A stretch of 64,000 bases of DNA, taken from assembly GCA_048941015.1 (NCBI GenBank), contig JBHLNZ010000003.1, forward strand, positions 32,001 to 96,000, written 5' to 3'. Both the position numbers and the translations under genes were made by a program. The notes beneath the pieces are model-generated. The model was not told the DNA's origin, ran no database searches, and saw only the letters and a list, made by a program, of their open reading frames with translations. Positions 15,747 to 19,046 of this stretch are shown piece by piece. The DNA is from Promethearchaeota archaeon (lineage in GTDB: Archaea > Asgardarchaeota > Lokiarchaeia > Sigyniarchaeales > SOKP01). How positions within the stretch are numbered: the first letter of the stretch is position 1; each line of letters begins with the position of its first letter.

Positions 15747-16829
15747 CTATATAATAATGAATGATACAAAAAATAAAATAGTTGATAAAACAAAATTATA
15801 AGATAAATTATCATCAATTTCTAAATCTAAATAATCTAAAAGTCCTATTATTAGGGCGCCAATGGTTGGTATTAGAAAAAATCCTAAAAGACTTGTAATA
15901 AAAAATTCTCTTAATAAGATTAGTATGATAATCCCTGAGATAAAGGCTGTTATCATTCCTGCAAATAATCCCTCATAGGTTTTGTTTGTTTTTCGAATCT
16001 TTTTCTTCCCCAACAACCTACCAATAAGATTTGAATTTGTATCTCCAAAAATCCCCATAGTCATAGATGTGCATATTATTAAAGGCCCAATTGGTTGAAA
16101 TAATCCATATAAAATAATAATAGAAAAACAACCAATACTCATAGAAATATGAGGGCCAAGTCTCATATGTAATTCTTTTTCTCTTAAAATTCGATTTACA
16201 GGTTTTAATGGATAAATATTAGGTTTTAAAATTCTAACAAAATCTACTGTCAATAAACTTATTAGAGAAATTCCTACTAAAGAAACCACTAAGTATTGAG
16301 TAAAGATCATTTTATCTCCCTCAATATTATAAACAGAAAAAAATAAATCTGAAAAAAAATCAGGTAGTAATTGAAATATATAAATAAAAAAATGTTGGAC
16401 CAAAAATCCTAGAGTAAAATAAAAAAAAATAATGGTTAAAACGACAAGATGACTCAACTTTCTATAAATTTCGTATTTTAAGGGTAATTGTTTAATAACC
16501 TGTTTTTCAGAAATCATTTCCAAATTCTTACTTAATTTGACCTTTTTGCGTTCCCTAGAAATTAAAAAATAAAAAAAGGGTAAAAAAAGTAGTATAAAAG
16601 TAATAATAAAAATGTCAAATGGAAAAATAATAAAATCAATTGATGATAAATGTGAAAAATTAACAATTATCAAATTGACGGTTATACTTAACAATAAAAT
16701 GAGTCCATTAACAATGTTATTTTGATACGCTCCTTTCTCATCTTTTTTCTTTGCTAAAAAACCAACGTATAAAATCATTAATCCATAAGCATAAAAAGCG
16801 CTTACGATTATAACCGATAATATATTCAA
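15747..16829 (-). CDS. CTP-dependent polyprenol/dolichol/phytol kinase family membrane protein (SEC59/DGK1/VTE5-like)
   Basis: EIYRKLSH, LREKE, GD..S.LIG, KTYEG, DDN motifs. Confidence 0.85.
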   Translation of the reverse strand: MNILSVIIVSAFYAYGLMILYVGFLAKKKDEKGAYQNNIVNGLILLLSITVNLIIVNFSHLSSIDFIIFPFDIFIITFILLFLPFFYFLISRERKKVKLSKNLEMISEKQVIKQLPLKYEIYRKLSHLVVLTIIFFYFTLGFLVQHFFIYIFQLLPDFFSDLFFSVYNIEGDKMIFTQYLVVSLVGISLISLLTVDFVRILKPNIYPLKPVNRILREKELHMRLGPHISMSIGCFSIIILYGLFQPIGPLIICTSMTMGIFGDTNSNLIGRLLGKKKIRKTNKTYEGLFAGMITAFISGIIILILLREFFITSLLGFFLIPTIGALIIGLLDYLDLEIDDNLSYNFVLSTILFFVSFIII

Positions 16830-16924: not shown

Positions 16925-18337
16925 TTAAAAATTACTCTCATCGATTTTTGGCATTTCTGGAGAATTTAACGCTATTCTAATCTCTTCATCAGGTAATTCA
17001 TAATCTTCTAAATTCCCTGCCATGAACTCCTTATATGCAAGTAAATCAAAATAACCATGTCCACTAAAATTGAACACTATAACCTTCTTTTCGTTGTTTT
17101 CATGAGCTATTAACGCTTGATCCATTACTTCTTTTATTGCATGACATGTTTCAGGAGCAGGAAGTATTCCTTCTGCTTTAGCAAATCTTATTCCTGCTTC
17201 AATAACTTCAGTTTGGTAATGCATATTAGAAGAAATGATTTTATTGTTATGTAAAATCGAAACCAATGGAGCAATTCCGTGATATCTCAATCCTCCTGCA
17301 TGAATCGGATTTGGGATAAATGAATGCCCTAATGTATGCATTTTTAAAATAGGTGCTTGTTTCGCAGAATCACCATAGTCCCAACGGTAATTCCCTTTAC
17401 ATACACTTGGACAAGCACGAGGTTCAACACCTATTATTTCAACATCGGGGAGAATTCCGTGTATCTTTTCTCTAACAAAAGGAAGTGCAAATCCCATAAA
17501 GTTAGAACCGCCCCCCATACAACCGATTAAAATATCAGGTTCCTCTATCCCTGCTTTTTTTAATTGAATCTTAACTTCTTGCCCAACAATCGTTTGATGT
17601 AGACAAACAAAGTTAACCACGCTTCCTAAAGAATACCGTGCTTTATCACTCCTTAAACTATGCTCTATAGCTTCAGATATAGCAATTCCTAAACTACCGG
17701 GATGATCTGGATTGTTATTGTAAAATAATCTTCCCGATGATGTAAATTCTGATGGACTAGGGAGAACTTCAGCATTATAAGATTGCATTAAAATTTTCCT
17801 GCCCGGTTTTTGAAGAAAACTTGCTCTTACCATATATACTGTGCATTTAATATCAAACAAGTTGCATCCGAAAGACAATCCAGATCCCCATTGCCCCGCT
17901 CCCGTTTCAGTAACCAACTCTTCAATTCCATCTTTTTTAGCATAATAAGCTTGAGCTAATGCAGTATTTGGTTTATGTGATCCGGTTGGAGAAACAGATT
18001 CATTTTTGTAAAAAATTTTAACTTTATCATTAAAAATCCCGAGTTCTTTTTCTAAACCAATAGCACGATGGAGCGGTGTAGGTCTATAAGATCTAGCATA
18101 AATTTCACGTAATTCTGCAGGAATAGGTATAATTGGGTCTTGAGAGACTTCTTGAAGGACACATTCTTTCGGAAAAATTGAGAAAGCCATTTCTGGGGGA
18201 GCAGGTTTGCCATCCATTGGATTTATTAATGGTGTCATAGGAGTTGGTAAATCAGGTAAAATATTTACCCATTCTTTTGGAACTTCACTTGGATCCAATA
18301 AAATTCTTGTATTGAAAATATCTACTATTTTAATCAC
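16925..18337 (-). CDS. trpB2: Tryptophan synthase beta, TrpB2 type (true start possibly ATA 18328)
   Basis: YRPTPL, SPTGSHKPN, TETGAGQWG, GGGSN, IHAGGLRYHG, NFSGHG. Confidence 0.95.
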   Translation of the reverse strand: MIKIVDIFNTRILLDPSEVPKEWVNILPDLPTPMTPLINPMDGKPAPPEMAFSIFPKECVLQEVSQDPIIPIPAELREIYARSYRPTPLHRAIGLEKELGIFNDKVKIFYKNESVSPTGSHKPNTALAQAYYAKKDGIEELVTETGAGQWGSGLSFGCNLFDIKCTVYMVRASFLQKPGRKILMQSYNAEVLPSPSEFTSSGRLFYNNNPDHPGSLGIAISEAIEHSLRSDKARYSLGSVVNFVCLHQTIVGQEVKIQLKKAGIEEPDILIGCMGGGSNFMGFALPFVREKIHGILPDVEIIGVEPRACPSVCKGNYRWDYGDSAKQAPILKMHTLGHSFIPNPIHAGGLRYHGIAPLVSILHNNKIISSNMHYQTEVIEAGIRFAKAEGILPAPETCHAIKEVMDQALIAHENNEKKVIVFNFSGHGYFDLLAYKEFMAGNLEDYELPDEEIRIALNSPEMPKIDESNF

Positions 18338-18434
18338 CTTTTAAAATTGTTTTTTTTTAAATTAAATGTGTATCATTCTTATATTGGAGTTCAATATAAT
18401 CAATGCCCATTTGGCACTCAGAAAGATATCTCTT

Positions 18435-18465
18435 TTTTAAATTAAAAGTAAAAAAGGGAAAAATA
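18435..18465 (-). terminator. Oligo-U tract between leader peptide and trpB2 (candidate attenuator terminator)
   Basis: Minus strand TCTATTTTTCCCTTTTTTACTTTTAATTT about 20 nt after the leader stop. Confidence 0.5.
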
Positions 18466-18482
18466 GATAATCTAAATATGAT

Positions 18483-18557
18483 TTAAACCAATGAAAAGAG
18501 CGTTCTTTTACGCCATTGCCACTGCCAACGCCAAAAAGACTTAATTTCAGTAGCCAT
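18483..18557 (-). CDS. Trp-rich leader peptide MATEIKSFWRWQWQWRKRTLFSLV (trpL-like)
   Basis: 24 codons with four TGG within 7 codons; 146 nt upstream of trpB2 on the same strand. Confidence 0.85.
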   Translation of the reverse strand: MATEIKSFWRWQWQWRKRTLFSLV

Positions 18558-18606
18558 GATAAAAAATCATATTTTTATTTAATAAAATTACAACATGCTC
18601 GTTAAC

Positions 18607-18620
18607 TTATAAATTTATTC
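18607..18620 (-). promoter_or_regulatory. BRE/TATA for the leader-trpB2 transcript
   Basis: GAATAAA-TTTATAA on the minus strand, about 50 nt upstream of the leader ATG. Confidence 0.5.
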
Positions 18621-18641: not shown

Positions 18642-19046
18642 TTATCTTCCTTCAAATATTTTACCTAAATTTTTTGATGCAACGCGCATTACTTTAACAG
18701 TTTTCATTAAAGTATCTATTATCGTTCCGGCACAAACTATAACTAACCGACCGGCATTACTAATTACTATATATCCATTTTCAGCTCTTACTATAATTTC
18801 GCTTAATTCCTCTTGAAATAAACTCTGAATTGTCGAACTTCCAGTCATCAATAAAGCACTAGCAAGTCCACAGAATTGATCCCCATCGACATGATATTGG
18901 GGCAGTGCGGAAAATGCTATTTGATATCCTTCTTGAGAGACTAAAGCAATAGCTTCGATATCTGCGTTTGAAGTAATAAAAGTAATCTGAGGGCTAATTT
19001 TTTCAATATCTTCATTGGTAATTCCTAAATCCGACCCAAACTGCAT
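18642..19046 (-). CDS. Roadblock/LC7 domain protein
   Basis: IEAIALVSQEGYQI, LASALL, EIIVRAENGYIVI. Confidence 0.9.
   Translation of the reverse strand: MQFGSDLGITNEDIEKISPQITFITSNADIEAIALVSQEGYQIAFSALPQYHVDGDQFCGLASALLMTGSSTIQSLFQEELSEIIVRAENGYIVISNAGRLVIVCAGTIIDTLMKTVKVMRVASKNLGKIFEGR

Follow-up and report, generated by a model that had tools for sequence, protein, structure and literature searches.

We analyzed the region upstream of trpB2 in a 64-kb stretch of DNA (64,000 nucleotides, hereafter the window) from contig JBHLNZ010000003.1 of an Asgard archaeon of the class Lokiarchaeia (Promethearchaeota archaeon, assembly GCA_048941015.1; 29% G+C, 95% complete), where a short upstream open reading frame (uORF) rich in tryptophan codons precedes the gene. 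All parts of this leader and trpB2 itself lie on the minus strand of the window, and coordinates below are window positions on that strand unless stated otherwise. The trpB2 gene (16925..18337) encodes a TrpB-like pyridoxal phosphate enzyme matched by Pfam PALP and by NCBIfam NF009057 and TIGR01415. It passes the test of the equivalog hidden Markov model NF009057 with 631 bits (cut-off 366) and scores 579 bits against TIGR01415 (cut-off 519), whereas the canonical trpB model TIGR00263 gives only 148 bits, below its cut-off of 392. Neither trpA, trpC, and trpE nor a second trpB was found in the focal genome at its 95% completeness. trpB2 is therefore the sole Trp-pathway gene detected in this genome, which is consistent with indole salvage.

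The leader promoter has a TATA box (TTTATAA, 18607..18613), and an A-rich stretch resembling a B recognition element lies just upstream. The consensus of the box, TAAnTTTnTAA, is among the best conserved blocks of the family alignment, and all 39 family sequences have a TATA-like octamer ~45 nt before the uORF start. From the usual archaeal spacing between TATA box and start site, transcription is predicted to start near 18584, ~27 nt before the uORF. The uORF (18483..18557) consists of 24 codons and a stop codon; its translation, MATEIKSFWRWQWQWRKRTLFSLV, contains WRWQWQW. This segment is specified by the sensing codons TGG CGT TGG CAG TGG CAA TGG (18513..18533), in which four Trp codons (starting at 18533, 18527, 18521, and 18515) alternate with Arg and Gln codons. 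Within the last Trp codon begins the 5′ arm of a hairpin, P1 (GGCGT-AAAAGA-ACGCT, 18499..18514). Right after P1 there is a run of four T (T4, 18494..18497), and the motif TTCATTGG (18488..18495; family form T[GT]CANNGG) lies immediately 3′ of the hairpin. T5, T6, and T4 runs, which are candidate archaeal termination signals, begin 19 nt after the uORF stop and extend to 39 nt (18444..18463). Closer to the gene, the long conserved hairpin P4 (18374..18405) contains an outer helix CATT/AATG, an inner helix TTATATTG/CAATATAA, and the loop AACTC. It is followed by an ACACAT block (18366..18371), which the family alignment identifies as the 5′ arm of a further hairpin of the relatives, P5 (CACAT/ATGTG), and by the Shine-Dalgarno-like AGGTGAT of trpB2 (18333..18339), at the place where relatives have AAGGA or AGGTAA. 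A preliminary description of this DNA had listed a TATA-like box, a 24-residue reading frame with four TGG in 7 codons, a U-tract, and trpB2 in this order, and our analysis confirms the arrangement on the minus strand.

The Trp codons of the uORF stand out against every background that we counted. TGG makes up 0.9% of the codons in all frames of the window, and the uORF is its single site with four Trp in 7 codons. Among the 13,727 small intergenic open reading frames of the genome, the uORF is the sole genuine case of such Trp density. For comparisons across genomes, a leader was scored when a small open reading frame, complete from start to stop, carried W-x-W within five codons of its stop. 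By this strict criterion, leaders are found upstream of 48 of the 62 trpB2 genes sampled in the class, compared with a background of 56 of 2966 long open reading frames of the focal genome (1.9%). One locus, L037 (G063:C76), has ~100 N at the expected position of the trpB2 leader and was kept outside the scoring. The counts in the window, the genome, and the class rule out a chance origin of the Trp-codon uORF. We note that a second Trp-dense small reading frame of the genome, C126:683-757, was rejected as an artefact, because the antisense strand of a Pro-rich small gene mimics a Trp-rich frame. That small gene (G000:C126:600-830, locus L031) is unannotated and lies on the minus strand; its product has a coiled N-terminus, and its tail is rich in Pro (MSIENPNLLERIIEIEKRL...PPHPPGPPGPPPEP).

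Of the 161 genomes of the class, 137 have a trpB2 orthologue. All 21 congeners examined contain a Trp-codon uORF upstream of trpB2, as do most other genera, with endings before the stop codon such as FCWQWPWRS, FWRWQWPWRF, and SWQWPWRWQ. Other families of the order and class show endings such as WPWH, WAWH, WPWQ, FFWCWQ, and LFWRWQWCWRWQ. Outside the class, trpB2 Trp-codon uORFs were found in four further Asgard families, and none was found in the other Asgard families examined, the large family f12 among them. We collected 67 leaders (loci L001-L117), whose final 16 codons contain 2-6 Trp codons. A single codon intervenes in 135 of the 155 successive Trp pairs (W-x-W), usually one for Q, R, P, A, or H, and in 51 leaders the stop follows 1-2 codons after the last Trp. 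At the aligned start of the uORF, 33 of the 39 family sequences have a start codon, ATG in 29 of them and GTG in the other 4. The distance from this start to the conserved TGG is 24, 27, or 30 nt, and the two are in frame in all 32 testable sequences. These comparisons show that the uORF is maintained as a reading frame with a promoter upstream, as expected for a leader-peptide attenuator. As a separate observation, the inner codons of W-x-W are GC-rich, in genomes of ~30% G+C, and adjacent WW is rare (4/155).

Leaders of the same kind are also found in the class directly upstream of the first gene of canonical trp operons. Their endings before the stop codon include KAWPWHKL, FFWSWSWHY, TWFWVWCWHA, TWFWAWRWRA, IWIWAWRWHA, GWQMPWRY, and EWPWCWRN, and one leader-bearing operon was verified as trpD-trpC-trpF-trpB-trpA. 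In one genome (G049), the trpB2 leader and the trp-operon leader are paralogues. In the genus g16, trpB2 has no leader, and a full family-type leader precedes the trp operon instead. All clear losses of the trpB2 leader (g15, g16, G080, and G043) are in genomes with trpA; we count these losses in full-pathway genomes in favor of a Trp sensor, as few cases among relatives that are not independent. Cognate leaders were not found before the his operon (C44) or two HMGL-type genes of the focal genome, and argG was not found in this genome. Scans for Leu and Ile leaders were too noisy in its 29% GC DNA. The preliminary description had proposed that trpB2 of an Asgard archaeon is served by a leader peptide with Trp codons and had suggested looking for the Trp-rich uORF and the U-tract in relatives. 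The leader peptide withstands this comparison from the genus to the phylum level and extends to canonical trp operons, and the uORF is kept in 48/62 cases within the class; the U-tract is not universal (T5 in 67% of leaders, see below). We consider it very probable that the element is a Trp-responsive cis-regulatory leader peptide.

A sensor of this kind could in principle read the peptide and not the codons. The uORF could encode a functional Trp-rich micropeptide, or a TnaC-like nascent arrest peptide that senses free tryptophan, and codon hunger would then not be the signal. The narrow set of inter-Trp residues (Q, R, P, A, H) and the almost invariant W-x-W spacing could indeed mean a constraint on the peptide. 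However, the inter-Trp residues of the canonical-operon leaders include F, V, I, and S, and the N-terminal part and the length of the uORF (12-70 residues) vary freely, with the Trp residues alone conserved across families. In addition, a TnaC-like sensor would activate genes when Trp is abundant, the opposite of what trpB2 and trpDCFBA would call for. We regard an action through the peptide as very improbable.

The conserved structures of the leader RNA include P1 and P4. When RNAalifold was applied to the whole leader alignment, P1 was the sole helix predicted. Pair counts show pairing in 88% of the cells of P1 and two-sided changes in 3 of its 5 pairs; in the inner helix of P4, both sides change in 6 of 8 pairs. 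Counted together over the 39 sequences, P1 and P4 have 85.7% paired cells compared with 77.4% in shuffles (0/500 reach the observed value), and pairing is 36-61% in slid registers; 9 of 13 pairs change on both sides in the true register. The outer helix of P4, CATT/AATG with CGTT/AACG variants, was recovered by the unbiased column-pair scan. This all-against-all covariation scan of the 39 sequences returned P1, P4, and the outer P4 helix only. P5 could not be counted by columns because its loop lengths vary; compensatory variants (CATC/GATG, CACC/GGTG, and CAAC/GTTG) are visible by eye in the family alignment, and the 3′ partner of P5 is absent in the focal genome.

The position of P1 relative to the uORF is also conserved. 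The uORF stop codon of the relatives is located within the P1 loop. Essentially every leader has a hairpin near the last Trp codon, the 5′ arm of which begins between -3 and +9 nt of this codon in nearly all of them, and P1 itself always begins at the last Trp or at the stop codon. Judged from these positions, the regulatory codons fall within a ribosome footprint of the leader hairpin, as in an attenuator. Two designs can be distinguished. Type A leaders combine a short P1, whose loop includes the stop codon, with a following T[GT]CANNGG, and Type B leaders (families f2 and f4) have a long hairpin that begins at the stop codon, with -13 to -27 kcal/mol, followed by T4-T6. In 35 of 65 leaders, T[GT]CANNGG follows the last Trp codon at a distance of 15-23 nt, compared with a background of 1.7%, and it is shared by several Asgard families and by both trpB2 and trp-operon leaders (e.g. 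L065, L076-L079, and L098). No pairing partner was found for this motif; a pairing of TTCATTGG with the CCAAT arm of P4, judged by eye, shows no covariation and was rejected. A search of Rfam with cmscan at E values up to 10 found no Trp_leader (RF00513), T-box, or other family, and returned three unrelated matches at chance level.

Four pairings in this leader had been named in the preliminary description. The hairpin GCGT/ACGC after the Trp codons is P1, which is real, conserved in position, and covarying. The other three, namely CTCTTTT with AAAAGAG, the hairpin AGTGCC/GGCATT, and TGCCAA with TTGGCA, turned out to be specific to the focal genome or to few genomes. Of these, the focal-specific hairpin AGTGCC-AAATG-GGCATT (18402..18418) competes with the outer P4 helix for CATT and is not conserved in the relatives, including the closest one, L053.

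It should be considered whether the conserved blocks are protein-binding sites, either operators at which a transcription factor would act on a second promoter or UGG triplets for a TRAP-like RNA-binding protein, with the uORF being incidental. P4 and an ATGnGCAT block form palindromes, the TGG repeats recur every 6 nt, and AT-rich blocks such as ATTATATT could serve as a second TATA box. The compensatory changes and the G-U pairs on the sense strand, on the other hand, favor RNA helices over operators, and the reading frame and start codon of the uORF are maintained. TRAP requires 9-11 (G/U)AG repeats, whereas there are only 2-6 UGG per leader, and TRAP (PF02081) was not matched in the focal genome in a search whose control was positive in B. 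subtilis. The same Trp-codon design also recurs in leaders that otherwise share no sequence. Binding sites with an incidental uORF are, in our judgment, very improbable.

Sequence comparison across genomes establishes a conserved Trp-codon uORF, its frame, its promoter, P1 and other helices, and a link to Trp genes. We infer that the uORF is translated, that ribosome stalling is the signal, and that transcription termination is the output. The leading model, to which we assign a probability of roughly 0.5, is control of trpB2 by transcription attenuation through ribosome occlusion. Transcription would start ~27 nt upstream of the 24-codon uORF. When charged tRNA-Trp is scarce, the ribosome would dwell on the alternating Trp codons with its mRNA channel over the 5′ arm of P1; P1 would be held open, and transcription would proceed into trpB2, whose product would make Trp from salvaged indole. 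When Trp is plentiful, the ribosome would finish and leave, and P1 would be free to form before the polymerase has left the U-rich stretch. The polymerase would then terminate or be cleaved off in the T-rich stretch, and little trpB2 mRNA would be made.

Several findings are consistent with termination in the leader. Across the family, T is most frequent 30-50 nt past the uORF stop, with a fraction of 0.51-0.54 compared with a background of 0.37, and 67% of leaders have a T5 in the first 60 nt past the stop compared with 37% in the background. A terminator consensus scan of the leader strand in the focal genome called two terminator-like sites, P1 with T4 and a second hairpin, when 0.1 was expected from shuffles. 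Terminator signals are strong in two families. Family f2 has long leader hairpins followed by T5-T6, and in family f9 (L099, G162:C56), a GCCTG-TTTTT-CAGGC hairpin followed by ~35 nt of almost pure T is located between the uORF and trpB2, ~60-130 nt upstream of the gene.

Other findings weigh against the attenuation model. T5 is missing from the first 60 nt past the stop in a third of the leaders. A scan with a strict pattern of bacterial terminators called P1 of the focal genome and did not call the leader hairpins of three relatives. The stability of the focal P1 is unremarkable (z = -1.2), and the position-anchored hairpin stability of 54 leaders is only mildly beyond shuffles (mean z = -0.76, 48/54 negative). 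The focal uORF is atypical, in that the usual stop is lost and 9 more codons are read through P1 to TAA, a stop that is also used in a second lineage of the genus; the uORFs of relatives stop 0-4 codons past the last Trp. The leader geometry in the focal genome therefore differs from that of the relatives. An internal promoter may also lie between the uORF and trpB2. Finally, no covarying antiterminator or alternative helix was found in the scan of 39 sequences, in which the candidates were 4 bp and invariant. A classical switch between terminator and antiterminator is therefore not supported, and the attenuation model needs kinetic occlusion in place of the 1:2/2:3/3:4 switch. Kinetic occlusion is the simplest reading that would fit the conserved geometry. 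These results also bear on the proposal of the preliminary description that Trp supply sets read-through into trpB2, possibly by masking or exposing the U-tract. Read-through as the output is still plausible, with T-runs that are enriched (67% vs 37%) and not universal; the masking and exposing finds no alternative helix in the unbiased scan.

The same sensor could also have a different output, in which stalling acts on a leader-trpB2 mRNA of full length and changes how its translation is initiated, how it is processed, or how stable it is. This could happen, for example, via P4 and P5 beside the ribosome binding site (RBS). Such an output would fit the conserved and covarying P4 and P5 directly upstream of the Shine-Dalgarno sequence, the T-runs that are not universal among leaders, and the compact leaders with only 55-100 nt from uORF to gene. 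Mycobacterial Cys uORFs reportedly act at the translational level. The Shine-Dalgarno sequence, however, is outside P5 in most sequences, and the covariation scan found no long-range helix joining the Trp region to the RBS. The preliminary description had suggested folding the leader with and without a ribosome-masked window, and this comparison brought out no effect on the trpB2 RBS. In an equilibrium model of 54 orthologues, the unpaired probability of the RBS was 0.43 for the free leader, 0.43 with a ribosome stalled on the Trp codons, and 0.41 with a ribosome at the stop. Translational attenuation by RBS sequestration is thus not supported, as the modeled ribosome footprint leaves RBS accessibility unchanged. 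In favor of an output on the full-length mRNA, one report calls mycobacterial Cys uORFs attenuators of operonic gene expression (bioRxiv 10.1101/834739). We consider such an output rather unlikely, and transcription attenuation by ribosome occlusion is the model that we compare with known systems below.

The arrangement resembles enterobacterial trpL, as well as hisL, leuL, pheL, thrL, and ilvL, in that a short leader reading frame has its cognate codons clustered a few codons before the stop. TrpL of E. coli ends with WWRTS before its stop codon, and relatives in the Asgard archaea end with WPWRS or WRWQ. In the E. coli trp leader, the 5′ arm of the 1:2 pause hairpin is over the regulatory codons and the stop codon is in the loop. 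The Asgard hairpin is built similarly, with its 5′ arm over the regulatory codons, the stop in the loop, and U-rich sequence following, and the Asgard element, like bacterial attenuators, is found on more than one Trp unit. There are also differences from trpL. The host is archaeal: its RNA polymerase resembles that of eukaryotes, and termination is of the oligo-U/aCPSF1(FttA) type. The gene that the leader would control is a stand-alone trpB2, and the Trp codons alternate (W-x-W), whereas those of trpL are in tandem. The Asgard leader lacks a match to Rfam Trp_leader, covariation revealed neither a 2:3 antiterminator nor a 3:4 terminator pair in it, and it has extra conserved hairpins (P3-P5) and a motif without a bacterial counterpart.

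Control of archaeal trp genes by Trp is otherwise known from TrpY of Methanothermobacter and Thermococcus, a DNA-binding repressor that acts at promoters. The Asgard element is similar to TrpY in its goal; unlike TrpY, it consists of a uORF and RNA helices and is predicted to be translated. The cognate-codon uORFs of actinobacteria and mycobacteria (leaders predicted for Trp, Cys, and others, and leaderless poly-Cys uORFs) precede amino-acid genes without the canonical enterobacterial set of terminator and antiterminator, and their output may be translational or by occlusion (PMC1262725, bioRxiv 10.1101/834739). These uORFs differ from the Asgard ones in that they are bacterial, are partly leaderless, and involve other amino acids, and the RBS sequestration modeled for the Asgard leader was not found.

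Some features of trpB2 and its surroundings are described here in their own right. The start of trpB2 in the focal genome is unusual. Relatives use an ATG 9 nt downstream of the focal GTG. The corresponding codon is ATA (18328-18326) both in the focal genome and in L053, its closest relative, and a perfect AGGTGAT precedes it by 4 nt. The sole canonical start, GTG (18337-18335), sits within this AGGTGAT. Translation of trpB2 may start at AUA, or at GTG without a Shine-Dalgarno sequence. A congener, G141, has two trpB2 copies 15 kb apart on one contig (C50:67336-68742 and 83532-84941), and one of the two contains an in-frame TAA close to its start. The leader is directly preceded by a gene with a Roadblock/LC7 domain (18642-19046, minus strand). 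This neighbor, ending with KNL.QIFEGR before its stop codon, recurs in several other genera (L037-L039 and L046), and synteny is therefore conserved. On the other side, between trpB2 and pyrI, a 360-residue open reading frame (15747-16829, minus strand) has no match in Pfam or NCBIfam and overlaps the pyrI open reading frame by ~70 nt.

Ribosome-mediated attenuation is a textbook mechanism of bacteria, and our full-text literature searches found no report of leader-peptide attenuation in archaea. A 2026 review of termination states that hairpins can enhance archaeal termination and makes no mention of attenuation (PMC13675443). Promoter recruitment is described elsewhere as the only known target of transcription regulation in archaea (PMC8448881). 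We tentatively propose, at a little less than even odds, that leader-peptide attenuation is an ancient device of Asgard archaea, in which a ribosome on alternating Trp codons would directly decide what becomes of a eukaryote-like RNA polymerase when it reaches terminators of the U-tract or aCPSF1(FttA) type, and no bacterial antiterminator would be involved. If the leader acts in the proposed way, a conserved, phylum-wide cognate-codon leader on two Trp units would mean that Asgard archaea steer transcription or mRNA fate by translation. The leader would then be a defined and mutable test case for archaeal transcription-translation coupling and conditional termination. In organisms without the rest of the pathway, it would further count as in-vivo-style evidence for a role of stand-alone TrpB2 in supplying tryptophan from salvaged indole. 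The leader hairpin and T tract of L099 would be a good substrate for studying conditional termination in archaea. If attenuation is indeed an ancient Asgard device, coupling-based gene control would be present in the closest prokaryotic relatives of eukaryotes, and it may be a forerunner of uORF-based amino-acid control.

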